Virus record (IMG/VR): IMGVR_UViG_2778261463_000010
Span: 1 to 15,679 of that record
Origin: a virus
Lineage: Duplodnaviria > Heunggongvirae > Uroviricota > Caudoviricetes
Direction: 5' to 3' (one strand)
DNA: 15,679 nucleotides
Shown: positions 816 through 14,355 of the stretch, piece after piece
Layout: the number at the start of each line of letters is the position of its first letter
Numbering within the stretch: position 1 is the first letter of the stretch
Position numbers and translations under genes: made by a program
The notes under the pieces: model-generated
The model's input: only the letters and a program-made list of their open reading frames with translations
Databases searched by the model: none
Told to the model about the DNA's origin: nothing

Positions 816-872
816 ATATCCATTTATTATCTTTCTGCGCACTTCACGGTGCGCAGATATCTGGAGCATTTG

Positions 873-3134
873 ATGATCAAGTTATCTGAAAAAGGCGTGT
901 TTCTCGCCAGTAATAACGAAATAATTGCCGAAGAACATTTCACCGGCGAAATTAAAAAAGAAGAAGCCAAAAAAGGCACTATTGCCTGGTCTATTCTCTC
1001 TTCGCATAATACGTCCGGAAATATGGATAAACTTAAAATTAAGTTTGATTCATTAGCCTCTCACGATATTACCTTTGTTGGTATTGTACAGACCGCTAAA
1101 GCGTCCGGTATGGAACGTTTCCCGCTGCCGTATGTGCTGACCAACTGCCATAACTCACTCTGCGCCGTCGGCGGCACTATTAACGGTGATGACCATGTTT
1201 TTGGTTTATCGGCGGCCCAGCGTTATGGCGGTATTTTTGTGCCTCCGCATATTGCGGTCATCCATCAATATATGCGTGAGATGATGGCAGGCGGCGGCAA
1301 AATGATCCTCGGGTCAGACAGCCACACCCGTTACGGTGCATTAGGGACAATGGCAGTCGGTGAGGGCGGCGGTGAGTTGGTAAAACAGCTGCTTAATGAC
1401 ACCTGGGATATCGACTATCCGGGCGTGGTTGCGGTGCATCTGACCGGAAAACCTGCGCCGTATGTGGGGCCACAGGATGTGGCGCTGGCTATCATTGGCG
1501 CGGTGTTCAAAAACGGTTACGTCAAAAACAAAGTCATGGAGTTCGTTGGACCGGGCGTTAGCGCGCTCTCTACCGATTTCCGTAACAGCGTTGACGTGAT
1601 GACCACTGAAACGACCTGTTTAAGTTCTGTCTGGCAAACCGATGAAGAAGTCCATAACTGGCTGGCGCTGCACGGTCGCGGCCAGGATTACTGCCAGCTT
1701 AACCCTCAACCGATGGCGTACTACGATGGCTGCATCAGCGTTGATTTAAGCGCCATCAAACCAATGATTGCGCTGCCGTTCCACCCGAGCAACGTGTATG
1801 AAATCGACACACTGAACCAGAACCTGACCGACATTCTGCGTGAGATTGAAATTGAGTCCGAACGCGTGGCGCACGGTAAAGCCAAACTCTCGCTGCTGGA
1901 TAAAGTGGAAAATGGTCGCCTGAAAGTGCAGCAGGGGATTATCGCGGGCTGTTCTGGCGGTAACTACGAAAACGTCATCGCGGCGGCGAATGCACTGCGC
2001 GGTCAATCCTGTGGCAATGACACCTTCTCGCTGGCAGTTTACCCGTCATCACAGCCGGTGTTTATGGATCTCGCCAAAAAAGGTGTGGTAGCAGATTTGA
2101 TTGGCGCAGGCGCAATCATCAGAACCGCGTTCTGCGGCCCATGCTTTGGCGCGGGCGATACGCCAATCAACAACGGTTTGAGTATTCGCCACACCACGCG
2201 TAACTTCCCGAACCGCGAAGGCTCTAAGCCAGCTAATGGGCAGATGTCAGCGGTGGCGTTGATGGACGCTCGTTCTATCGCTGCGACTGCGGCAAACGGT
2301 GGCTATTTAACCTCTGCCAGCGAACTTGATTGCTGGGACAACGTGCCGGAGTACGCCTTCGATGTAACGCCGTATAAAAACCGTGTTTATCAGGGCTTTG
2401 TGAAAGGGGCAACTCAGCAACCGCTGATTTACGGGCCGAACATTAAAGACTGGCCGGAATTGGGTGCGCTGACTGACAATATCGTCCTGAAAGTGTGCTC
2501 GAAGATCCTCGACGAAGTGACCACCACCGACGAACTGATTCCTTCCGGTGAAACCTCTTCTTATCGTTCAAATCCGATTGGTCTGGCGGAGTTTACCCTG
2601 TCTCGCCGCGATCCCGGTTATGTTAGCAGAAGTAAAGCGACTGCTGAGCTGGAAAATCAGCGTCTGGCGGGGAATGTCAGCGAGCTGACAGAGGTGTTTG
2701 CGCGCATTAAGCAGATTGCTGGTCAGGAGCATATTGATCCGCTGCAAACTGAAATTGGCAGCATGGTCTATGCGGTGAAACCAGGCGATGGTTCTGCGCG
2801 TGAACAGGCGGCGAGCTGCCAGCGTGTGATTGGCGGTCTGGCGAATATTGCCGAGGAGTACGCGACTAAACGCTATCGTTCTAACGTCATCAACTGGGGG
2901 ATGTTACCGCTGCAAATGGCGGAAGTACCAACCTTTGAAGTGGGGGATTACATTTACATCCCTGGCATTAAAGCGGCGCTGGATAATCCGGGTACGACGT
3001 TTAAAGGTTATGTGATCCATGAAGATGCGCCGGTAACGGAAATTACGCTCTATATGGAAAGTCTGACTGCTGAAGAGCGCGAGATTATCAAGGCGGGTAG
3101 TTTGATTAACTTCAATAAAAACCGTCAGATGTAA
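873..3134 (+). CDS. ybhJ: Aconitase-family protein YbhJ (753 aa)
   Basis: Long ORF with aconitase-like Cys/Gly-rich motifs. ATG at 873 is preceded by GGAG at 863-866. The six-frame track's longer form starts at GTG 849. Confidence 0.88.
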
Positions 3135-3147
3135 AAAGCGCCATGTG

Positions 3148-3352
<205 letters not shown>

Positions 3353-3367
3353 AATAGTTAATTGCTC

Positions 3368-4651
3368 TTACTTCTTCGCCTCTGCAACCACTTTACTACC
3401 CACGCCGCGGTTATTGTATTCCCACATGCGGTTGTAGTTAGTGTCATTCAGATTGCGCTGTATTTCGTCGTTATCATCTACGCTGCCGGTATTACCCGCA
3501 AACGGACGATTAGAGATCACCGCATCGGCCCACGGTTTAGCCGTGTTAAAACCTTCGTTGATGGCGCTATCACGGATCACCACCTGACCGTTGGTATTGG
3601 CATCAACATCCAGCGAGCGGCCCAGTTGCGCCACACCATCACCGAAAGCATTGAAACGGCTGTTTACGGCGAGGAAACCGTAGTAAATGTTGGACAGCGT
3701 AGCCGGTGCAAACACATACGCTTCTTGCTGAGTACGTGAGTTCACCACGCGGAATTCGGTGTTATCGAACACCACTGCGCCGCGACCAGAAACGATATCC
3801 ACATCCCCTTCAATGTAGCTGTTGGTCACCAGCGTACGCGGCTGACGATTTGTTTCCAGACGGTTCTGCACACCGCTGTTGGTGACAAAGAAGGTGTTCT
3901 GACGACCGAGAATGTTAACGTTGTTAATCTGTACCTGGTCACCATCAGTACGCAGTGCCACCGCCGGATGGTTACCTGCATCTACGCTATCGCCCAGCGT
4001 GTTTTCGATGGTCAGATTTTGCAGTTGCAGGCCATTGTTTTGTGACCAGAAGACCGCAGAGCAGAGAACACCGATACTGTCGCTGCGTTTGCTCTGGCAG
4101 CTATCGTACATATACCACGCTGGTTTACCTGGCATATATTTGCCGCGCGGGTTGACGTCGTGACGCCAGTCGGCAGGGCTCATGCCACCATCAAGGGAAA
4201 GCCCAATCTTCACATCAATCGGTTTTTCACCTGTACCGTACAGAGTAATTCCACCCGGAGCGGCAGGGACATATACCGTTCCCTGATACTCACCAGGCAT
4301 CACGGCAATATACTGGCGCTTGTTGGTACGCTTGATAATTGCCGCATCTACCGCCGCCTGAATCGTGGTATGCGTTACACCTTGAGTGCCCGCCGGGTCG
4401 ACAACAAAGTCAGGTTGCGCAGGCAGGGTAATCGGGGAAGGATTCCACGCTGCAGCACCTGGTGTCAGGGATGCAAAATAGTGTTGAGCATCGAAATTCT
4501 GCGCTTCTTTTGCCGACAGAATCGGGCGAGAAGAGGTACCAGGCGCGGTTTGATCAGAAGGACGTTGATCGGGCGGGGTTGAGCTACAGGCGGTCAGCGT
4601 CACGCCAAAAGCCAATGCCAGCGCCAGACGGGAAACTGAAAATGTGTTCAC
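3368..4651 (-). CDS. ybhC: Outer-membrane lipoprotein YbhC (pectinesterase-like, 427 aa)
   Basis: ORF with signal peptide and lipobox LTAC. GTG start preceded by GGAG. Sits immediately chromosomal-side of the att core, as expected for the attλ left flank. Confidence 0.88.
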   Translation of the reverse strand: MNTFSVSRLALALAFGVTLTACSSTPPDQRPSDQTAPGTSSRPILSAKEAQNFDAQHYFASLTPGAAAWNPSPITLPAQPDFVVDPAGTQGVTHTTIQAAVDAAIIKRTNKRQYIAVMPGEYQGTVYVPAAPGGITLYGTGEKPIDVKIGLSLDGGMSPADWRHDVNPRGKYMPGKPAWYMYDSCQSKRSDSIGVLCSAVFWSQNNGLQLQNLTIENTLGDSVDAGNHPAVALRTDGDQVQINNVNILGRQNTFFVTNSGVQNRLETNRQPRTLVTNSYIEGDVDIVSGRGAVVFDNTEFRVVNSRTQQEAYVFAPATLSNIYYGFLAVNSRFNAFGDGVAQLGRSLDVDANTNGQVVIRDSAINEGFNTAKPWADAVISNRPFAGNTGSVDDNDEIQRNLNDTNYNRMWEYNNRGVGSKVVAEAKK

Positions 4652-4689
4652 AGGTTGCTCCGGGCTATGAAATAGAAAAATGAATCCGT

Positions 4690-4784
4690 TGAAGCCTGCT
4701 TTTTATACTAAGTTGGCATTATAAAAAAGCATTGCTTATCAATTTGTTGCAACGAACAGGTCACTATCAGTCAAAATAAAATCA
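4690..4784. other. attL: Prophage attL: att core plus lambda P' arm
   Basis: GCTTTTTATACTAA at 4698-4711 followed by GTTGGCATTATAAAAAAGCATTGCTTATCAATTTGTTGCAACGAACAGGTCACTATCAGTCAAAATAAAATCATTATTTG, which matches the recalled lambda P' arm, running up to the int stop. Confidence 0.9.
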
Positions 4785-5855
4785 TTATTTGATTTCAATT
4801 TTGTCCCACTCCCTGCCTCTGTCATCACGATACTGTGATGCCATGGTGTCCGACTTATGCCCGAGAAGATGTTGAGCAAATTTATCGCTTATCTGCTTCT
4901 CATAGAGTCTTGCAGACAAACTGCGCAACTCGTGAAAGGTTGGCGGATCCCCTTCGAAGGAGAGACCTGATGCTTTTCGTGCGCGCATAAAATACCTTGA
5001 TACTGTGCCGGATGAAAGCGGTTCACGACGAGTAGATGCAATTATGGTTTCTCCGCCAAGAATCTTTTTGCATTTATCAAGTGTTTCCTTCATTGATATC
5101 CCGAGAGCATCAACATGCAATGTTGTTGGGATGGCAATTTTTACGCCTGTTTTGCTTTGCTCGACATAAAGATATCCATCTACGATATCAGACCACTTCA
5201 TTTCGCATAAATCACCAACTCGCTGCCCGGTAACAACAGCCAGTTCCATTGCAAGTCTAAGCCAACATGGTGATGATTCTGCTGCTTGATAAATTTTCAG
5301 GTATTCGTCAGCCGTAAGTCTTGATCTCCTTACCTCTGATTTTGCAGCGCGAGTGGCTGCGACCGGGTTTGTTGTTATATGGCCTTCAGCCATAGCCTCT
5401 CGGAATGCATCGCTCAGTGTTGATCTGATTAACTTGGCTGATGCCGCCTTTCCCTCGTCTATGTATCCATTGAGCATTGCCGCAATTTCTTTTGTGGTGA
5501 TGTCTTCAAGTGGAGCATCAGGCAGACCCCTCCTTATTGCTTTAATTTTGCTCATGTAATTTATGAGTGTCTTCTGCTTGATTCCTCTGCTGGCCAGGAT
5601 TTTTTCGTAGCGATCAAGCCATGAATGTAACGTAACGGAATTATCACTGTTGATTCTCGCTGTCAGAGGCTTGTGTTTGTGTCCTGAAAATAACTCAATG
5701 TTGGCCTGTATAGCTTCAGTGATTGCGATTCGCCTGTCTCGGCCTAATCCAAACTCTTTACCCGTCCTTGGGTCCCTGTAGCAGTAATATCCATTGTTTC
5801 TTATATAAAGGTTAGGGGGTAAATCCCGGCGCTCATGACTTCGCCTTCTTCCCAT
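4785..5855 (-). CDS. int: Lambda-type tyrosine integrase Int (356 aa)
   Basis: Translation MGRRRSHERRDLPPNLYIRNNGYYCYRDPRTGKEF...REWDKIEIK is essentially the recalled lambda Int, with the catalytic C-terminal HxxR...Y region present. Confidence 0.97.
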   Translation of the reverse strand: MGRRRSHERRDLPPNLYIRNNGYYCYRDPRTGKEFGLGRDRRIAITEAIQANIELFSGHKHKPLTARINSDNSVTLHSWLDRYEKILASRGIKQKTLINYMSKIKAIRRGLPDAPLEDITTKEIAAMLNGYIDEGKAASAKLIRSTLSDAFREAMAEGHITTNPVAATRAAKSEVRRSRLTADEYLKIYQAAESSPCWLRLAMELAVVTGQRVGDLCEMKWSDIVDGYLYVEQSKTGVKIAIPTTLHVDALGISMKETLDKCKKILGGETIIASTRREPLSSGTVSRYFMRARKASGLSFEGDPPTFHELRSLSARLYEKQISDKFAQHLLGHKSDTMASQYRDDRGREWDKIEIK

Positions 5856-5949
5856 TTCTGATCCTCTTCAAAAGGCTACCTGTTACTGGTCGATTTAAGT
5901 CAACCTTTACCGCTGATTCGTGGAACAGATATTCTCTTCCATCCTTAAC
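5833..5949 (-). pseudogene. xis: 3' remnant of excisionase gene xis (about the last 38 codons); 5' half replaced
   Basis: Minus strand encodes ...VKDGREYLFHESAVKVDLNRPVTGGLLKRIRNGKKAKS*, overlapping the int start as in lambda. Reading upstream, an in-frame TAG occurs with no start codon, and the sequence diverges from lambda beyond about 5949. Confidence 0.8.
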
Positions 5950-6123
5950 GCAGATCGGATGATTACCGGTTCGCTACCAGGGAAGAACGGGAAGGAAAGG
6001 TGAGCACGAATCTGATTTTCAAGGAGTGTCGCCAGAGTGCCGCGATGAAGCGGATGTTGGCATTTTATCGCGGCAATTTTCAATAGACTATGTACATAAA
6101 AATATCATTTTTTTAATACATGT

Positions 6124-6315
6124 CTAATTATTGGACGAAATTGGTTTTTGCTTTGGTTTAGTTAGCCTAGCAATCAAGCCAGAGGCAATAATGATGATCC
6201 AAGCAATTTGATGCAATGCTACTCCAATATAAGAACCTTTATAGATAATAAAGGCATAGATCGCTAGAAACGAAATAAATATCCATAACGAAAGTTGATA
6301 AATTTTGGCGCGCAT
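6124..6315 (-). CDS. Hypothetical small membrane protein (63 aa, two predicted TM helices, basic C-terminus)
   Basis: ORF MRAKIYQLSLWIFISFLAIYAFIIYKGSYIGVALHQIAWIIIIASGLIARLTKPKQKPISSNN. Two hydrophobic stretches. No clear Shine-Dalgarno. Lies in the AT-rich island, divergent from the lipoprotein operon. Confidence 0.45.
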   Translation of the reverse strand: MRAKIYQLSLWIFISFLAIYAFIIYKGSYIGVALHQIAWIIIIASGLIARLTKPKQKPISSNN

Positions 6316-6571
6316 ATTTAATCCAATCAATCAGAAAGACGAGTAATCATAGAGGTACTATCACCCGGGTAACTATTGCTATTATGAACGGATAGGATAG
6401 AGGCTTCAATAACATATGCATCAAGTATGATGGAATATGTAGGTGAAAATGACTTGTGTCAAATTTGTGGAAATGAGTACCATGTTTCTCTGAAATTGAT
6501 GTCGTTAATGGCTAGTGATAGTGAACTTTTTTACTTTATAATTCCTTTGGTTATAACAATAAGGTAAATTT

Positions 6572-7132
6572 ATGAAGAAGATAATATTATTAGCCATGAT
6601 TATTGGTTCTTTAACAGGTTGCGCTAGTGTGCCACCATTGAATTTTTCAACACCTAACGTGGGAGTTAGCCAGAAAAAAATAGATGCTGAAATTAAGTCA
6701 TTAACGGTATCACTTGCTCGTCCAGATGAGCAGAAAGGGGATATCACTGCTGGTATGGAGGCTATAACTCCAATTTGGCGTGAATCTTTGCAGGAAGCAC
6801 TCGACCGAATGACTATTTTTCGTGATAGTTCACCAAATACGGTTAGCTTAAATGTTAAAGTGTTGGCTCTTGACGTTCCTGCTTTTGGTGTTTCAATGAC
6901 AACTAAAGCAATTGCAAGGTATGAAATAATCAACCGTGCGAATGGTGATATTATATATACGCAGGATATTGAGTCTACCGGTACTGTTCCAGCCAGTTAC
7001 GCATTCTACGGTATTGTTCGAGCACGCGAATCTGTTAATCGCGCGGTGCAAAACAACATAACGCAGTTCTTGCAAGCATTAGAAAGTGTTGATCTTTCTC
7101 GTCCAATGTTTCCTGTTAGGGTAGCTAAATGA
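6572..7132 (+). CDS. Hypothetical lipoprotein (186 aa), first gene of a two-gene operon
   Basis: Signal peptide MKKIILLAMIIGSLTGC with lipobox LTGC. AAGG 6 nt upstream of the ATG. AT-rich codon usage. Stop overlaps the next start (ATGA). Confidence 0.8.
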   Translation: MKKIILLAMIIGSLTGCASVPPLNFSTPNVGVSQKKIDAEIKSLTVSLARPDEQKGDITAGMEAITPIWRESLQEALDRMTIFRDSSPNTVSLNVKVLALDVPAFGVSMTTKAIARYEIINRANGDIIYTQDIESTGTVPASYAFYGIVRARESVNRAVQNNITQFLQALESVDLSRPMFPVRVAK

Positions 7133-7635
7133 AGCGATTATTCGTAATTGCTCCACTCTTAGTGTTGGTTGGATGCGCACAAAATATATCGCCAAATAGT
7201 TATTCTGTTGGCTCTGTGGGCATGGTTAATCGAACTATCGCTGGTACAGTTATTAGTGCTAGGGGGGTTGATATCAGTGGGACTTCCGCGTTAGGCGGGA
7301 CTGCTGGGGCTGCCGTGGGGGCAACCGCTGGTTCTGCGCTTGGTGGGGGAGTTCGTTCTAATATCGTTGGTGCCGTTGGTGGTGCAGTCATTGGTGGTAT
7401 TGCCGGGGCAGCAATCGAATCTTCAGCAACAAAACAAACAGGCATGGAATATGTTGTCGAAACTGAGAATGGGAATTTAATGACCATTGTTCAAGGCAAA
7501 GATCCGTTATTTACTCAAGGAAGTAAGGTCCTTGTTTTATACGGAAACCCTTCTCGCATAATAACAGACCGCGTCACTAACATACCTTTTGATTTTGTAA
7601 AATCAATTCGTAATAATAAAGTCATCGGAGCTTGA
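7129..7635 (+). CDS. SlyB/Pcp-like glycine-zipper outer-membrane lipoprotein (168 aa)
   Basis: Lipobox LVGC. Gly/Ala zipper GTSALGGTAGAAVGATAGSALGGG...GAVGGAVIGGIAGAAI followed by a beta-rich C-terminal segment (NGNLMTIVQGKD...SKVLVLYGNP). This matches the domain order I recall for SlyB. Start overlaps the upstream stop. Confidence 0.8.
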   Translation: MKRLFVIAPLLVLVGCAQNISPNSYSVGSVGMVNRTIAGTVISARGVDISGTSALGGTAGAAVGATAGSALGGGVRSNIVGAVGGAVIGGIAGAAIESSATKQTGMEYVVETENGNLMTIVQGKDPLFTQGSKVLVLYGNPSRIITDRVTNIPFDFVKSIRNNKVIGA

Positions 7636-7770
7636 ACAACTCCGGTGACTTCTGCGCTAAACGGGGACGTTTATGCGCACATACAATCCAAACTCTCTTC
7701 TCCCTTCACAGATGCAGAAATGCACCTGCGATTTTTTGCATCCAGCGTCTGACCTCTGCGGAGGTGAAGC

Positions 7771-8226
7771 GTGAACCTACCACAAGATGGCATCAAACTG
7801 CATCGCGGTAACTTCACCGCTATCGGCCAGCAGATCCAGCCTTATCTGGAGGACGGAAAATGCTTTCGCATGGTGCTTAAACCGTGGCGTGAGAAACGCA
7901 GTCTTTCCCAGAATGCACTCAGCCACATGTGGTACAGCGAAATCAGTGAATACCTCATCAGCAGGGGGAAATCGTTCGCTACCGCAGCATGGGTAAAAGA
8001 TGCTCTCAAACACACATACCTCGGTTATGAAACCAAGGACCTGGTTGATGTCGTAACCGGCGAAATCACTACTATCCAGTCGTTACGCCATACCTCCGAT
8101 CTTGATACCGGAGAGATGTATATCTTCCTGTGTAAGGTTGAAGCCTGGGCGGTGAATATTGGCTGCCACCTGACTATTCCGCAGAGCTGCGAGTTCCAGC
8201 AGCTCCGCGACAAACAGGAGGCGTAA
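7771..8226 (+). CDS. ybcN: NinB-family protein (YbcN-like, 151 aa)
   Basis: GTG start with GGAGGTG upstream. Shares the RSLxQN motif with lambda NinB. Gene order matches DLP12 ybcN-ninE-ybcO-rusA. Confidence 0.85.
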
Positions 8227-8396
8227 TGGCTACACCGCTTATTCGTGTCATGAACGGACACATCTACAGAGTACCAAATCGTCGTAAGCGTAAACCGGAG
8301 CTGAAGCCTTCCGAAATACCAACACTGCTCGGATATACCGCCAGCCTGGTTGATAAAAAATGGTTGCGACTGGCAGCAAGGAGGAGTCATGGCTGA
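8226..8396 (+). CDS. ninE: NinE-family protein (56 aa)
   Basis: ATG overlaps the ybcN stop (TAATG). Basic RRKRKP...WLRL pattern as in lambda NinE. Below the ORF-track length cutoff. Confidence 0.7.
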   Translation: MATPLIRVMNGHIYRVPNRRKRKPELKPSEIPTLLGYTASLVDKKWLRLAARRSHG

Positions 8397-8679
8397 TTTG
8401 AGAAAAGCAGCGCGTGGTCGGGAATGCCAGGTAAGAATCCCTGGCGTATGTAATGGCAACCCTGAAACGTCTGTACTGGCACATATCCGGCTGACTGGAT
8501 TGTGCGGCACCGGTACGAAACCGCCAGACCTGATTGCCACCATTGCATGTTCTGCCTGCCACGACGAAATCGACCGCCGCACACATTTTGTCGATGCTGC
8601 ATATGCAAAAGAATGCGCGCTGGAAGGTATGGCGAGAACACAGGTTATCTGGCTGAAAGAGGGGGTTATTAAGGCGTGA
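8389..8679 (+). CDS. ybcO: YbcO-like protein (DUF1364, putative nuclease, 96 aa)
   Basis: ATG at 8389 preceded by AGGAGG. Cys-rich CxxC...CxxC pattern. Overlaps the ninE stop by 8 nt. Confidence 0.82.
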
Positions 8680-9038
8680 ATACCTACAGCATCACATTAC
8701 CCTGGCCTCCGAGCAATAATCGCTATTACCGCCATAATCGCGGGCGCACACACATCAGCGCAGAAGGGCAGGCATACCGCGATAACGTCACCCGAATCAT
8801 TAAAAACGCAATGCTGGATATCGGCCTGGCTATGCCAGTGAAAATCCGTATTGAGTGCCACATGCCGGATCGCCGTCGCCGTGACCTGGATAATCTGCAA
8901 AAAGCCGCTTTTGACGCACTCACCAAAGCAGGTTTCTGGCTGGATGATGCTCAGGTCGTTGATTACCGCGTTGTGAAGATGCCTGTTACCAAAGGTGGGA
9001 GGCTGGAACTGACCATCACCGAAATGGGGAATGAATGA
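8676..9038 (+). CDS. rusA: Holliday junction resolvase RusA (120 aa)
   Basis: Translation [23 protein letters not shown]...[12 protein letters not shown] matches recalled RusA. GTG start overlaps the ybcO stop (GTGA). Confidence 0.92.
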
Positions 9039-9175
9039 TGTTTGAGTTTAATATGGCAGAACTTCTTCGCCACCGCTGGATGCGCCTGCGCTTATATCGT
9101 TTCCCCAGTTCTGTTTTGACCGATTACCGAATACTGAGGAATTACGCCAAAACCCTGACAGGAGCAGGAGTATGA
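9035..9175 (+). CDS. ylcG: YlcG-like small protein (46 aa)
   Basis: ATG overlaps the rusA stop. Position and size match DLP12 ylcG. Short ORF with weak independent support. Confidence 0.55.
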
Positions 9176-9260
9176 AGTCAGAGATAACAATCAACTAATA
9201 CTGTTTTATTGATTTTTGCTTGTAATTGGCGTTCTGGTCTGATTTTTGTGGAGTAAGTTG

Positions 9261-9644
9261 ATGCGTGATATTCAGATGGTTCTTGAGCGTTGGGGAGCGT
9301 GGGCGGCTAATAATCATGAAGATGTGACCTGGTCGTCCATTGCCGCCGGTTTTAAGGGATTAATTACTTCAAAAGTAAAATCTCGCCCGCAATGTTGTGA
9401 CGATGACGCGATGATCATTTGCGGGTGCATGGCCCGTCTGAAAAAGAACAACAGCGATTTGCACGATTTATTAGTAGATTATTATGTAGTCGGTATGACA
9501 TTCATGTCACTGGCAGGTAAGCATTGCTGCTCTGATGGTTATATCGGGAAAAGGTTACAGAAGGCTGAGGGTATAATTGAAGGGATGTTAATGGCATTAG
9601 ATATCCGGTTAGAGATGGATATCGTTGTTAATAACTCTAATTAA
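9261..9644 (+). CDS. quuD: Late-gene antiterminator Q (QuuD-like, 127 aa)
   Basis: ATG at 9261 with GGAG 9 nt upstream. Cys-rich zinc-binding-like region ([12 protein letters not shown]...HCC). Position immediately upstream of the late region. Confidence 0.85.
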
Positions 9645-9659
9645 TATGCCAATTGTTTA

Positions 9660-9695
9660 CTAAAAATTATTAAAAATGGGGCGTTGAGACGCCCC
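9660..9695 (-). terminator. Intrinsic terminator on the minus strand, downstream of the porin gene
   Basis: Stem GGGGCGT/ACGCCCC (9678-9684 and 9689-9695) with a 4-nt loop, followed on the minus strand by AUUUUUAAUAAUUUUU. Confidence 0.6.
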
Positions 9696-9832
9696 CAAAA
9701 ATAAAGGGTAATATATAACAGAAGGTTTATATAGTTAGAAGCAAGGTTGTGCTCCTAAAGGAAGTGGCTTGAGGGAGCCACTTATATGTTGGGGAGGCAA
9801 AGCCTCCCGCAACATATCTTTTAGTAATCAAA
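9660..9832 (-). ncRNA. ipeX: Candidate IpeX-like small RNA / structured 3' region downstream of the porin gene
   Basis: Three consecutive stable stem-loops (9678-9695, 9762-9783, 9784-9817) in the porin 3' intergenic region. In DLP12 the sRNA IpeX is reported at the 3' end of nmpC. Boundaries not determined. Confidence 0.4.
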
Positions 9833-10915
9833 TTAGAACTGGTAAACCATACCTACAGCAACGATATCATCGGTAGCAACGCCAGATGCTTTCGTGAAAT
9901 CGCTCTTATCAATCAGGTTGATTTTGTAATCAACAAAAGTGGACATATTTTTGTTGAAGTAATAGGTTGCACCTACATCAATATATTCAACCAGGTCCTG
10001 ATCACCCCACGCACCCAAGTCTTTTCCTTTAGATTGCAGGTAAGCAACGGACGGACGCAGACCGAAGTCGAACTGATATTGTGCAACTACTTCGAAGTTT
10101 TGTGCTTTGTTGGCAATATGGTTATTACCAAAAACAGTCATGTTCTGGGTTTCAGAATAGGTGGTAGCCAGATAGATGTTGTTCGCATCATATTTCAGAC
10201 CAGCTGCCCATACTTCAGCATTTTGACCAGATGCATTCAGGCTGTTGTTACCGTAGATAACCTGATTATTAGTGCGGTCAGATTTAGCATAGGTTGCACC
10301 TACACCGAATCCTTCATACTCATAAGTAGTGGAGAAACCGAAACCATCACCATTAGCTTCAGTTACGTCAGTGCGGTCATTTTTACCCTGATACTGAGCA
10401 GCAAAGTTCAGACCATCAACCAGACCAAAGAAGTCATTGTTACGATAAGTTGCAACACCTGTGGTGCGACCAGTCATGAATACATCTGTTTGGGTCCAGG
10501 TATCGCCACCGAATTCTGGCAGAACGTCGGTCCATGCACCAATATCGTATGCTACACCGTAGTTACGGCCATAATCGATGGAGCCGTAGTCACCGAATTT
10601 CAGGCCAGCGAAGGCAAGACGGGTTTTATCTTTGGAGGAACCTTGAGATTCAGCGCGGTTGCCTTTGAATTCATATTCCCACTGACCGAAACCAGTCAGT
10701 TGATCGTTGATTTGGGTTTCACCTTTGAAGCCAAGACGGGCATAAGTAGTATCACCATCATCTGCATCATTAGAGGAGAAGTAGTGCTTAGCATTAACTT
10801 TCCCGTACAGATCCAGCTTGTTACTGTCTTTATTATAAATTTCAGCTGCCTGAGCAGACATCGCCATCAGTACTGATGCAGCTACAGCAGAAATTGCCAC
10901 TGTTAATTTTTTCAT
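9833..10915 (-). CDS. nmpC: Prophage-encoded general porin of the NmpC/Lc/OmpD family (360 aa precursor), apparently intact
   Basis: Signal peptide [23 protein letters not shown], then [16 protein letters not shown]...; Gly/Tyr-rich beta-barrel pattern; C-terminal ...VGMVYQF. The ORF track's longer form starts at 10975. Confidence 0.93.
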
Positions 10916-11341
10916 CGTGAGCCCTTTTTTTGAACTATTATTAAAAAATGATGTCACTGCGCGATAAATATTCATCTAATCAATGTGATTATTTCAAGAT
11001 GTAAGTTTTGGTTTCTCATTTGATTTGTGAAGTAGATCTCTATTTTTATCTGAACTTTTTCTATCGAATCCTATTCATGGCTCTTGGCTGAATAAAAATA
11101 AATCTATTAGCCAATTTATATTAATGGCTGTTATTTATAAGCGCTCTATAATTTGAAGATTCAATTTAAACCAGCTAAAAATAACGCTGGAAATTATTTG
11201 TTGGTTATTTGTTGAGATTTGCTTATGTATTTGTAGTGGTGTTTTCAATACTCGGTAGCATTCTCGCAAATATCATTTAGTGGTTTACGTACGTAAAAAA
11301 TTGGTTATGCTGTTAAGAGTGGTTACTTCGTCACACAGCTT

Positions 11342-11375
11342 AAACCCGCCGTCGAGCGGGTTTTTCCATTTTTTG
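11342..11375 (+). terminator. Intrinsic terminator-like hairpin plus U-tract upstream of the lysis cassette (possible tR'-type site)
   Basis: Stem AAACCCGC/GCGGGTTT with loop CGTCGA, followed by TTTCCATTTTTTG. About 130 nt upstream of the holin start. Confidence 0.55.
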
Positions 11376-11502
11376 AGTCTCGATATTAGCTGATAACCCA
11401 ATACCTGAGTTATTCACTGACTCCGAGTCTGTTACGTTTCTGCTTTTTTGCGATACGTTGTATTCCCTCAATTTACACCCGCTTTGTCTGCGAGGTGGGG
11501 TT

Positions 11503-11718
11503 ATGAAATCCATGGATAAGTTAACAACGGGTGTCGCCTATGGCACCTCAGCAGGTAGTGCCGGTTACTGGTTTTTACAGCTGCTCGATAAAGTCACGCC
11601 CTCACAGTGGGCAGCAATAGGTGTGCTGGGTAGCCTGGTATTTGGCCTGCTGACGTACCTGACAAACCTTTATTTCAAGATTAAAGAAGATAAGCGCAAG
11701 GCTGCGAGAGGTGAATAA
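11503..11718 (+). CDS. essD: Class II holin (P21 S-type pinholin, EssD-like, 71 aa) with dual-start motif
   Basis: Translation [24 protein letters not shown]...[15 protein letters not shown] resembles recalled S21. Met1/Met4 dual start. GAGGTGGGG SD. Confidence 0.88.
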
Positions 11719-12215
11719 TGCCTCCATCATTACGAAAAGCCGTTGCTGCTGCTATTGGTGGCGGAGCAATTGCTATAGCATCAGTGTTAATTACTGGCCC
11801 AAGTGGTAACGATGGTCTGGAAGGTGTCAGCTACGTACCATACAAAGATATCGTTGGCGTATGGACTGTATGTCACGGACACACCGGAAAAGACATCATG
11901 CTCGGTAAAACGTATACCAAAGCAGAATGCAAAGCACTCTTGAATAAAGACCTTGCCACTGTCGCCAGACAAATTAACCCGTACATCAAAGTCGATATAC
12001 CGGAAACAACGCGCGGCGCTCTTTACTCATTCGTTTACAACGTGGGTGCTGGCAATTTCAGAACATCGACGCTTCTTCGCAAAATAAACCAGGGCGATAT
12101 CAAAGGCGCATGTGATCAGCTACGTCGCTGGACATATGCTGGCGGTAAGCAATGGAAAGGTCTCATGACTCGTCGTGAGATTGAGCGTGAAATCTGTTTG
12201 TGGGGTCAGCAATGA
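11718..12215 (+). CDS. rrrD: SAR endolysin (P21 R-type lysozyme, RrrD-like, 165 aa)
   Basis: N-terminal Gly/Ala-rich signal-anchor-release segment [20 protein letters not shown] followed by a T4-lysozyme-like catalytic region. Start overlaps the holin stop (TAATG). Confidence 0.93.
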
Positions 12216-12673
12216 ACAGAGTAACCGCGATTATCTCCGCTCTGGTTATCTGCATCATCGTCTACCTGTCATGGGCTGTTAATCATTACCGTGATAACGC
12301 CATTACCTACAAAGCCCAGCGCGACAAAAATGCCAGAGAACTGAAGCTGGCGAACGCGGCAATTACTGACATGCAGATGCGTCAGCGTGATGTTGCTGCG
12401 CTCGATGCAAAATACACGAAGGAGTTAGCTGATGCGAAAGCTGAAAATGATGCTCTGCGTGATGATGTTGCCGCTGGTCGTCGTCGGTTGCACATCAAAG
12501 CAGTCTGTCAGTCAGTGCGTGAAGCCACCACCGCCTCCGGCGTGGATAATGCAGCCTCCCCCCGACTGGCAGACACCGCTGAACGGGATTATTTCACCCT
12601 CAGAGAGAGGCTGATCACTATGCAAAAACAACTGGAAGGAACCCAGAAGTATATTAATGAGCAGTGCAGATAG
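12212..12673 (+). CDS. rzpD: Spanin inner-membrane subunit Rz (153 aa)
   Basis: N-terminal TM helix plus coiled-coil region. Near-identical to recalled lambda Rz. Start overlaps the endolysin stop. Confidence 0.93.
12432..12614 (+). CDS. rzoD: Spanin outer-membrane lipoprotein Rz1 (60 aa), embedded in Rz in the +1 frame
   Basis: Lipobox VVGC and proline-rich [13 protein letters not shown], entirely within Rz. Confidence 0.85.
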
Positions 12674-12704
12674 AGTTGCCCATATCGATGGGCAACTCAT
12701 GCAA

Positions 12705-12998
12705 TTATTGTGAGCAATACACACGCGCTTCCAGCGGAGTATAAATGCCTAAAGTAATAAAACCGAGCAATCCATTTACGAATGTTTGCTGGGTTTCTGT
12801 TTTAACAACATTTTCTGCGCCGCCACAAATTTTGGCTGCATCGACAGTTTTCTTCTGCCCAATTCCAGAAACGAAGAAATGATGGGTGATGGTTTCCTTT
12901 GGTGCTACTGCTGCCGGTTTGTTTTGAACAGTAAACGTCTGTTGAGCACATCCTGTAATAAGCAGGGCCAGCGCAGTAGCGAGTAGCATTTTTTTCAT
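12705..12998 (-). CDS. bor: Bor lipoprotein (serum-resistance family, 97 aa)
   Basis: Translation MKKMLLATALALLITGC... with lipobox ITGC. Matches recalled lambda Bor. Confidence 0.9.
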   Translation of the reverse strand: MKKMLLATALALLITGCAQQTFTVQNKPAAVAPKETITHHFFVSGIGQKKTVDAAKICGGAENVVKTETQQTFVNGLLGFITLGIYTPLEARVYCSQ

Positions 12999-13288
12999 GG
13001 TGTTATTCCCGATGCTTTTTGAAGTTCGCAGAATCGTATGTGTAGAAAATTAAACAAACCCTAAACAATGAGTTGAAATTTCATATTGTTAATATTTATT
13101 AATGTATGTCAGGTGCGATGAATCGTCATTGTATTCCCGGATTAACTATGTCCACAGCCCTGACGGGGAACTTCTCTGCGGGAGTGTCCGGGAATAATTA
13201 AAAACGATGCACACAGGGTTTAGCGCGTACACGTATTGCATTATGCCAACGCCCCGGTGCTGACACGGAAGAAACCGGACGTTATGAT

Positions 13289-13699
13289 TTAGCGTGGAAA
13301 GATTTGTGTAGTGTTCTGAATGCTCTCAGTAAATAGTAATGAATTATCAAAGGTATAGTAATATCTTTTATGTTCATGGATATTTGTAACCCATCGGAAA
13401 ACTCCTGCTTTAGCAAGATTTTCCCTGTATTGCTGAAATGTGATTTCTCTTGATTTCAACCTATCATAGGACGTTTCTATAAGATGCGTGTTTCTTGAGA
13501 ATTTAACATTTACAACCTTTTTAAGTCCTTTTATTAACACGGTGTTATCGTTTTCTAACACGATGTGAATATTATCTGTGGCTAGATAGTAAATATAATG
13601 TGAGACGTTGTGACGTTTTAGTTCAGAATAAAACAATTCACAGTTTAAATCTTTTCGCACTTGATCGAATATTTCTTTAAAAATGGCAACCTGAGCCAT
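13289..13699 (-). CDS. ybcV: YbcV-like protein (DUF1398, 136 aa)
   Basis: ORF conserved at this position in lambda and DLP12. The shorter start MAQVAIFKE is chosen; the ORF track extends to 13822. Confidence 0.75.
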
Positions 13700-13984
13700 T
13701 GGTAAAACCTTCCATGTGATACGAGGGCGCGTAGTTTGCATTATCGTTTTTATCGTTTCAATCTGGTCTGACCTCTTTGTGTTTTGTTGATGATTTATGT
13801 CAAATATTAGGAATGTTTTCACTTAATAGTATTGGTTGCGTAACAAAGTGCGGTCCTGCTGGCATTCTGGAGGGAAATACAACCGACAGATGTATGTAAG
13901 GCCAACGTGCTCAAATCTTCATACAGAAAGATTTGAAGTAATATTTTAACCGCTAGATGAAGAGCAAGCGCATGGAGCGACAAA

Positions 13985-14191
13985 ATGAATAAAGAACAAT
14001 CTGCTGATGATCCCTCCGTGGATCTGATTCGTGTAAAAAATATGCTTAATAGCACCATTTCTATGAGTTACCCTGATGTTGTAATTGCATGTATAGAACA
14101 TAAGGTGTCTCTGGAAGCATTCAGAGCAATTGAGGCAGCGTTGGTGAAGCACGATAATAATATGAAGGATTATTCCCTGGTGGTTGACTGA
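13985..14191 (+). CDS. ybcW: YbcW-like small protein (68 aa)
   Basis: [24 protein letters not shown]... at the conserved position between ybcV and ylcI. Confidence 0.7.
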
Positions 14192-14355
14192 TCACCATAA
14201 CTGCTAATCATTCAAACTATTTAGCCTGTGACAGAGCCAACACGCAGTCTGTCACTGTCAGGAAAGTGGTAAAACTGCAACTCAATTACTGCAATGCCCT
14301 CGTAATTAAGTGAATTTACAATATCGTCCTGTTCGGAGGGAAGAACGCGGGATGT

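Follow-up and report, generated by a model that had tools for sequence, protein, structure and literature searches.

The DNA analysed here (the window) is the 15,679-nucleotide IMG/VR virus record IMGVR_UViG_2778261463_000010, which consists of the E. coli region ybhJ-ybhC and the lambda attachment site (attλ), followed by a decayed lambdoid prophage. The subject is the segment at positions 5950-7770 of the window, which is located in this prophage between the remnant of xis and the nin genes. The features are listed in Table 1. The main part of the segment, which is called the cargo, contains a 485-bp leader and a translationally coupled operon for two lipoproteins, LP1 and LP2, the genes of which overlap by ATGA. 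We hold with good confidence that this segment is a composite, in which deletion scars are followed by a moron and then by the start of a DLP12-type nin region at the right end, and that the moron encodes a pair of lipoproteins that are probably expressed in the lysogen.

Table 1. Features of the segment and its surroundings (positions in the window)
Feature	Position	Strand	Remarks
ybhJ	849-3134		E. coli chromosomal gene
ybhC	3368-4651	minus	E. coli chromosomal gene, followed by the lambda attachment site
Lambda-type integrase	4785-5855	minus	356 amino acids, apparently intact; left end of the prophage at attλ beside ybhC; from the list of open reading frames
xis 3' remnant	5833-5949	minus	About 117 of 219 nt kept; N-terminal coding part deleted
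Junction B (xis/bet)	5946-5949		TAAC microhomology; from three-way sequence comparison
bet (recT-like) scrap	5950-5961	minus	12 nt unique, 19 nt with both microhomologies (5946-5964)
Junction A (bet/ren)	5962-5964		Shared ATT microhomology
ren 3' remnant (pseudogene)	5965-6086	plus	
Cargo segment (moron)	6060-7586	plus	In the ren/ylcH-ybcN slot; limits are homology breakpoints
AT-rich leader	6087-6571		Non-coding; 32% GC
Orphan open reading frame	6124-6330	minus	Hydrophobic; 63 amino acids from ATG at 6315, 68 amino acids from TTG
LP1	6572-7132	plus	186-amino-acid lipoprotein; lipobox LTGC, Ala at +2
LP2	7129-7635	plus	SlyB-family glycine-zipper lipoprotein (by similarity); 168 amino acids here; lipobox LVGC
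DLP12 backbone resumption	7587-8226	plus	Intergenic 7587-7672, ylcH 7673-7774, ybcN 7771-8226

The cargo has no counterpart in lambda or K-12 DLP12. Lambda has 73 bp without cargo between ren and ninB, and K-12 DLP12 has another cargo, emrE-ylcJ-ybcK-ybcL-ybcM, in the same slot with the same breakpoints. The cargo (1,525 bp) is detected in 280 of the 5,426 complete E. coli genomes, in every one of which it is chromosomal, present as a single copy and at least 99% identical. About 250 of these 280 carriers keep the region from P through ren to the cargo intact, as a probe consisting of the 3' end of P, the whole of ren and the first 135 bp past the ren stop codon, which include the left end of the cargo, is covered to at least 80% in 250 genomes. 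The only deposited phage with the cargo is PhiR30_1 (PV340558.1, 47.4 kb, recorded host E. coli C). Its region 10641-12166 is 99.9% identical to the cargo and is located between intact ren and ninB/ybcN, and the phage has complete recombination, immunity, replication, lysis, head and tail modules. The full-length prophage at argU of strain 2012C-4431 has the same layout, with complete recombination, immunity and replication modules. These results show that the cargo is a 1.5-kb moron and the normal occupant of the ren/ylcH-ybcN slot in DLP12-family phages, including apparently intact ones. The slot between the backbone genes is variably filled and the codon composition of the cargo is unlike that of the flanking genes, in agreement with the original prediction as far as it called this segment a moron.

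The original prediction had also proposed that the segment was inserted in place of the early region and that this insertion was coupled to the deletion. Two observations favour a single event in which an island entered at the xis/nin junction and the early region was lost: the distance from the deletion junctions to the cargo is only about 110 bp, and the window lacks the early region. However, the identical cargo is located beside a complete early region in PhiR30_1 and about 250 genomes, a ren remnant collinear with intact phages separates the junctions from the cargo, the junctions are simple microhomology junctions, and at least four other deletion variants carry the same cargo. Insertion of the cargo in the same event as the deletion is extremely unlikely for these reasons. 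Because the cargo is present between intact ren and ylcH/ybcN in PhiR30_1 and about 250 of the 280 carriers, its acquisition was a separate event from the deletion; the cargo was there before the early region decayed and is independent of the deletions. The alignment proposed earlier as a check thus speaks against replacement, since lambdoid phages that appear to be intact normally have this segment at this position.

The direct repeats for which a search of the junctions had been suggested do not flank the cargo either. Neither direct nor inverted repeats are detected at its borders, 6060 and 7587, beyond short matches at the chance level, and no transposase or integrase is encoded within 5950-7770. 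An inserted genomic island or transposable cargo was rejected on these two grounds. A 12-nt inverted repeat, TGCCGCGATGAA / TTTATCGCGGCA, is present at 6038-6075, with 11 of the 12 positions paired and a 14-nt loop; it straddles a position around 6060. Judging from this arrangement at the end of the ren homology and the start of the cargo, it may be a terminator-like element or a recombination boundary element.

The left part of the segment carries the deletion scars. Lambda 27727-28976 aligns to 4700-5949 of the window with 98.3% identity, from the att core through int into xis. The alignment ends at lambda 28976, within xis (lambda 28860-29078), so that the homology stops in the middle of xis near 5949, as had been noted. 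It does not resume only at the NinB-family gene at 7771, as had been claimed as well, because 5962-6061 matches the 3' end of lambda ren (40449-40548) at 92% and K-12 renD at 94%, and the DLP12 homology resumes at 7587. The equivalent stretch in sister strains is labelled 'protein ren, missing N-terminus' by the Prokaryotic Genome Annotation Pipeline (PGAP). None of exo, gam, kil, cIII, N, rex, cI, cro, cII, O and P is detected within 5949-7771, and bet is represented by the 12-19 bp scrap alone. The earlier statement that the recombination, immunity and replication block is missing is therefore correct.

Junction A corresponds to PhiR30_1 4168|10543. As compared to this phage, 4169-10542 (6.4 kb) is lost, with the 5' end of bet, gam, kil, cI, cro, cII, O, P and the 5' end of ren. 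The same junction with a longer bet remnant is detected in 19 complete E. coli genomes. The prophage of strain A14, which is also located at attλ, contains int, xis, several genes of the ea region and a bet remnant of 447 bp that is fused to the ren remnant, and then the identical cargo. Positions 7960-8018 of the A14 locus are identical to PhiR30_1 4110-4168 inside bet (59/59) and match lambda 32412-32470 at 57/59 positions. As compared to strain A14, a further 3.4 kb (A14 locus 4564-8000) is lost at junction B. Junction B is not detected in the 5,426 complete E. coli genomes, IMG/VR or the JGI metagenomes. It recurs in the draft genome GCA_044160185.1, which was found via a frameshifted LP2 allele, also carries that frameshift, and matches the window at 99.99% identity over 8.5 kb. 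Junction B is real, though missing from complete genomes, because the same junction is present in this second assembly.

As judged from the aligned sequences, the two scars are separate microhomology events. The early region of a lambdoid prophage at attλ was lost in two nested, independent microhomology-mediated deletions, of which the first joined bet to ren via ATT and the second joined xis to the leftover bet via TAAC. The joint outcome was the loss of the recombination, immunity and replication functions, with the 3' stub of ren left in place.

Other deletions, which arose independently, are found in relatives around the same cargo. In strain FDAARGOS_1248, a truncated exo is joined to the same bet scrap through CGGTA, and in an IMG/VR contig, orf61 is joined to a longer ren fragment. 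In strain VG48B2, the homology to the window ends at 5814, in the 5' end of int, with an apparent fusion of truncated int to orf60a (VG48B2 locus 7086-8171), which PGAP annotates as a 361-amino-acid 'DUF1317 family protein'; exo, truncated bet, truncated ren and the cargo follow. The right ends of the xis/bet deletion of the window and the exo/bet deletion of FDAARGOS_1248 fall in the same 7 bp, CGGTAAC (5946-5969 region of the window, 7998-8030 region of the A14 locus), directly left of the older bet/ren junction. This older junction created an inverted repeat, CGGTAA-N14-TTACCG, with a predicted DNA hairpin free energy of -4.2 to -7.6 kcal/mol. The CGGTAAC site may be a deletion hotspot, or the window may have descended from the FDAARGOS_1248 type.

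The GC content is 41.1% at 5950-7770 and 39.7% in the cargo, as compared to 45.1% in the int gene, 51.2% in the nin genes and 51-53% in the host genes. The GC content at third codon positions (GC3) is 0.30 for LP1 and 0.34 for LP2, as compared to 0.61 for ybcN and 0.57 for rusA. The AT-richness on which the original prediction was partly built is therefore real as compared to the flanks, but it is uneven, with the leader much poorer in GC (Table 1) than the LP2 gene (47%), and it is unexceptional for this prophage: about 16-19% of the stretches of equal length in the 15.7 kb, for example those around ybcV, are equally or more AT-rich, and the GC3 values of other accessory prophage genes resemble those of LP1 and LP2 (bor 0.36, ybcV 0.33, porin 0.39).

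When the cargo is compared with the copy of the operon in Klebsiella oxytoca, nucleotide similarity (71%) is detected only in the two coding sequences, at 6572-7562, and the leader is not common to the Klebsiella or Bordetella copies. This restriction of the similarity to the coding sequences means that the AT-rich leader is specific to the phage version. A sigma-70-like site (GTGATA-16-TATAAT, 10/12) is located in the leader at 6515-6542, 30 bp upstream of LP1, and a dedicated promoter of the moron in the leader is plausible from this site. No structured RNA is detected in the cargo or its leader by Rfam at the gathering threshold. The cargo contains matches to the PhoP box only with two mismatches, and their total count is not above that in shuffled sequences. 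Regulation by PhoP, as for slyB, was rejected, as the sole perfect PhoP box in the window is upstream of bor.

The original prediction had counted three envelope-protein genes in two divergent units. The two lipoprotein genes on the plus strand are confirmed, and the minus-strand open reading frame in the leader is not. The homologues of the latter are only five near-identical E. coli clusters, all in the same element, and no match to Pfam, PHROG or PADLOC is detected. It is annotated in PhiR30_1 and not called by PGAP. This frame was rejected as a third envelope gene, because homologues outside the element and a family match are both missing.

LP1 matches phrog_12521, a PHROG family of unknown function, and no Pfam family at E ≤ 0.1, even when the YajG family model is included. 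A sequence search of LP1 against PDB gives nothing meaningful. The match to YajG, the present name given by PGAP, is weak and partly driven by the signal peptide (hhalign, 83%, E 9e-6, residues 1-130). The structural model of LP1 has a mean predicted local distance difference test score (pLDDT) of 85 and matches LptE, PelC, PqiC, CsgG and TraT in fold. On the basis of this model, LP1 is predicted to have the two-layer alpha/beta lipoprotein fold of LptE, PelC and PqiC. As compared to LptE, PelC, PqiC (DUF330), CsgG and YajG, however, the identity of LP1 to the PDB fold matches is only 7-14% (15% in Foldseek), and its partner is a SlyB-like protein, unlike the LptD, PelB or PqiAB partners of these fold relatives. 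On the periplasmic side of the outer membrane, many proteins of this fold type assemble into rings or act as barrel plugs: LptE is a barrel plug, PelC and TraT have been solved as multimeric rings, and TraT is responsible for surface exclusion.

The name 'UDP-N-acetylglucosamine acyltransferase' is widespread for LP1 homologues in NCBI and UniRef. This function was rejected, because no such Pfam or NCBIfam match is detected and the predicted fold is that of an alpha/beta lipoprotein, not the hexapeptide-repeat fold of the LpxA type. The name looks like a propagated misannotation, and the database name of LP1 needs correction.

LP2 shows similarity to SlyB in three comparisons. The profile of the LP2 family matches PDB 7ojf_A (SlyB) over its full length (residues 4-149) with an E-value of 7.7e-15, BLASTP of LP2 against E. 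coli SlyB gives 33% identity with an E-value of 7e-13, and the sole significant Foldseek match of the LP2 model is 7ojf_A, with an E-value of 2e-8. These sequence comparisons and the model identify LP2 as a homologue of SlyB. LP2 also matches phrog_13877, a PHROG family of unknown function. Its lipobox sequence is MKRLFVIAPLLVLVGC, with Ala at +2, and 38 homologues all share the lipobox Cys. LP2 and SlyB (PDB 7OJF/7OJG) are collinear, with a lipobox, a beta strand, a glycine-zipper helical hairpin, a C-terminal beta domain and a terminal P-R. In contrast, it belongs to a subfamily apart from SlyB, with a mean column identity of 65% inside the subfamily; it is almost always preceded by LP1, whereas slyB has no LP1-like gene upstream; and it has no PhoP box upstream, unlike slyB. 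According to a recent report (10.64898/2025.12.22.696046, citing Janssens et al.), the glycine-zipper hairpin of SlyB oligomerises into rings that enclose nanodomains of lipid and outer-membrane proteins under envelope stress. Ring formation is known only for SlyB.

The common LP2 allele encodes 150 amino acids and ends with DPRH, so that it would stop near 7581. The D and R of the C-terminal D-P-R are invariant and the P is nearly so across the LP2 family, and SlyB also ends with PR. In the window, the C-run at 7569-7570 has lost 1 bp, so that the last three residues are different and 21 more follow. This frameshift is a lineage marker and not a read error, because the 168-amino-acid allele is present on 87 E. 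coli contigs. Judging from the altered C-terminus, the module may be impaired in this lineage.

LP1 is found in 76 species-representative genomes of Gamma-, Beta- and Alphaproteobacteria and of two Chthoniobacteraceae, and in 69 of these 76, LP2 is located directly downstream on the same strand. The homologues of LP1 (512) still show 60-70% identity in Klebsiella, Bordetella, Xanthomonas, Stenotrophomonas, Lysobacter and others. Lambdoid genes are mostly not present near the pair in other species, except for cI-like repressors at a few loci. IMG/VR contains 36 viral contigs with LP1, in which three or more distinct slots are occupied: the DLP12-type slot of E. coli, positions between the tape-measure and J-like tail genes (3), between terminase and portal (1) and directly downstream of cI (5). 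At five viral and three genome loci, all in (pro)phages of other Proteobacteria, the pair is located 40-80 bp downstream of, and co-directional with, a repressor with HTH_3 and Peptidase_S24 domains; in an example viral locus, cI is at 4203-4958, LP1 at 5001-5567 and LP2 at 5564-6031. This position directly after cI is held by rexAB in lambda. By analogy, the placement in a rexAB-like position after cI argues for expression of the pair in the lysogen. In Klebsiella oxytoca, LP1-LP2 is located beside umuD-umuC and an SRAP (YedK-like) gene (loci 2353-7010). The adjacency to umuD-umuC and to S24 repressors is a hint that some copies of the pair may be under SOS or LexA-like control. No paper in the literature mentions the RefSeq accessions of LP1 or LP2.

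Both LP1 and LP2 are predicted to be lipoproteins of the outer membrane encoded by a translationally coupled operon, and the two proteins would act together, because they are paired in this tight manner across phyla. Their expression would be from the prophage, and a promoter located in the AT-rich leader may drive it. We infer, as our leading guess, that the pair is a lysogen-expressed module that remodels or stabilises the outer membrane. Its function would then be one of lysogenic conversion, broadly comparable to those of bor, lom and the neighbouring prophage porin, and the blocking of phage receptors (superinfection exclusion) would be a possible consequence of this activity or an alternative role.

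Several points weigh against this interpretation. No publication on PhiR30_1 was found in the literature, and the viability of this phage, which bears on the moron being carried by functional phages, is deduced from its gene content and from the record that names E. coli C as the host. The number of promoter-like sites in the leader equals that expected from shuffled sequences, and no convincing terminator is detected after LP2. The LP2 model is of moderate confidence (pLDDT 67.5), and the Pfam glycine-zipper matches of the single LP2 sequence are below the gathering threshold (20.8 versus 24.2 bits). The conserved D-P-R end of LP2 is disrupted in the window, where DPRH and stop become DRVTNIPFDFVKSIRNNKVIGA and stop. 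The neighbourhoods of LP1-LP2 are varied and mostly chromosomal without phage genes, so that a phage-specific role is not required.

The main alternative, which we consider rather unlikely, is that the pair is primarily a superinfection-exclusion or anti-phage module. LP1, with its barrel-plug or ring fold, and LP2, as a SlyB-type ring, would attach to an outer-membrane receptor on its periplasmic side and either inactivate the receptor or prevent the entry of DNA, by the logic of T5 Llp, phi80/N15 Cor and plasmid TraT. The presence of the pair directly after and co-directional with cI-type repressors at the eight loci, in the position of rexAB, its capture by unrelated temperate phages in several slots, and the inclusion of the barrel plug LptE and the surface-exclusion protein TraT in the fold family of LP1 are all consistent with such a role. 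So is the encapsulation of outer-membrane proteins by SlyB rings described in the report cited above, and Llp, an inner-leaflet lipoprotein by which FhuA is blocked (10.64898/2026.03.26.714494), sets a precedent. PADLOC gives no match for LP1, LP2, the orphan open reading frame or ylcH, so that a known anti-phage defence system was rejected, and with it the defence island of the original prediction. No sequence similarity to annotated exclusion families is detected, both PHROG families are of unknown function, and most copies of the pair are in ordinary chromosomal contexts of Proteobacteria with 60-70% identity kept, which suggests a housekeeping-like envelope role rather than an arms race. 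No sequence relationship of LP1-LP2 to T5 Llp, phi80/N15 Cor or F TraT is detected, and LP1-LP2 is a two-protein module, whereas those are single small lipoproteins.

A more elaborate proposal, which is unlikely, is that LP1 and LP2 form a two-component outer-membrane machine that has not been recognised before, in which LP1, as a partner with the LptE/PelC fold, directs a SlyB-type ring onto certain outer-membrane proteins, and that temperate phages have repeatedly taken up this machine, in some cases in the cI operon, so as to mask or inactivate receptors and thereby exclude competitors. If this is true, superinfection exclusion would gain a new class, and LP1 would be the first dedicated partner known for a SlyB-family protein.

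It may also be considered that the cassette is a decaying passenger, left over from a dead prophage, which has no current function in this strain and drifts toward loss. The prophage is without excision, immunity and replication genes, the LP2 frameshift alters a conserved C-terminus, and the configuration at junction B is present in only one other assembly and in none of the 5,426 complete genomes, with the frameshifted allele on 87 contigs. These observations would be expected of a passenger. Nevertheless, LP1 is undamaged and does not differ from the common allele, only the last three residues of LP2 are altered by the frameshift in addition to the 21 added, conservation of the cargo is 99% or higher in each of the 280 carriers whatever the erosion around it, and repeated deletions have spared the cargo together with the nin, lysis and bor region. 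We regard the passenger explanation as decidedly unlikely, and an outer-membrane module expressed in the lysogen remains the preferred interpretation.

The element is similar to K-12 DLP12 in that it has the same backbone right of 7587 and also a truncated early region with a ren remnant. It differs in that K-12 DLP12 is located at argU with IntD, whereas this element is located at attλ with a lambda-type integrase; in that the slot contains the 4.07-kb emrE-ylcJ-ybcK-ybcL-ybcM in K-12 and the 1.53-kb LP1-LP2 here; and in that K-12 DLP12 has other deletion junctions, and the porin gene of this element is not disrupted by IS5. PhiR30_1 and the argU prophages of the 2012C-4431 type have the same cargo (99.9%) in the same slot and are collinear with 5962-14337 at 96.6% identity. 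Unlike this element, they still contain exo, bet, gam, kil, cI, cro, cII, O and P, besides intact ren and a full set of virion genes, and they have a DLP12-type integrase and the 150-amino-acid LP2 allele. LP1-LP2 resembles bor, lom and rexAB as an extra, compositionally distinct block for envelope proteins between backbone genes, which is located after cI in some phages, as rexAB is. The proteins of bor, lom and rexAB are, however, unrelated to LP1-LP2, and the LP1-LP2 operon is also common outside phages.

The genes ybhJ and ybhC also flank the prophage in the sister strains. Right of 7587, the element is 95.6-96.9% identical to the cryptic prophage DLP12 of K-12; the identity starts at 7587, upstream of ylcH, with 96.9%. 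The right arm contains ylcH, ybcN, ninE, ybcO, rusA, ylcG, quuD, an undisrupted porin gene, essD-rrrD-rzpD, bor and ybcV, and its part from 12212 onward also matches the right end of lambda with 99.4% identity. The left end is lambda-like and the right arm is DLP12-like; by these identities, the element is therefore a hybrid lambdoid prophage. The product of ybcN is a NinB-like base-flipping protein (NCBIfam PRK09741, E 2e-83), and its Pfam NinB score of 23.3 bits is slightly under the gathering cut-off of 23.8.

The prophage porin gene (nmpC/ompD-like, 380 amino acids, 9833-10975, minus strand) is intact here, and nmpC of K-12 is split by IS5. When the porin, bor and LP1-LP2 are counted, the prophage remnant contains at least four envelope genes. 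The bor gene is located at 12705-12998 on the minus strand, and a perfect PhoP-box consensus, TGTTTAGGGTTTGTTTA, is located at 13051-13067 (minus strand), about 53 bp upstream of its start codon. The borD gene of K-12 has been reported as a gene of the PhoP/Mg2+ stimulon. In the ybhJ-ybhC intergenic region, 3229-3299 matches naRNA4 of Rfam (RF02564) with 60.7 bits, barely over the gathering threshold, and a 103-bp segment of the same region is present as a tandem-like repeat (3158-3260 versus 3251-3352, 92%).

There is nothing unusual about the segment as a genome feature: its moron occupies a slot of DLP12-type prophages that is well known to vary, and the microhomology deletions beside it are ordinary. 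The nested deletion variants around an unchanged cargo illustrate cleanly how a prophage can erode while its accessory genes are spared. The interest rests not on the junction but on the LP1/SlyB-like operon, which is uncharacterised and conserved across Proteobacteria. A dedicated partner and a phage-borne version would widen the recently established picture of SlyB-family proteins as stabilisers of the outer membrane under stress, and LP1-LP2 is a testable candidate for lysogenic conversion or receptor masking.

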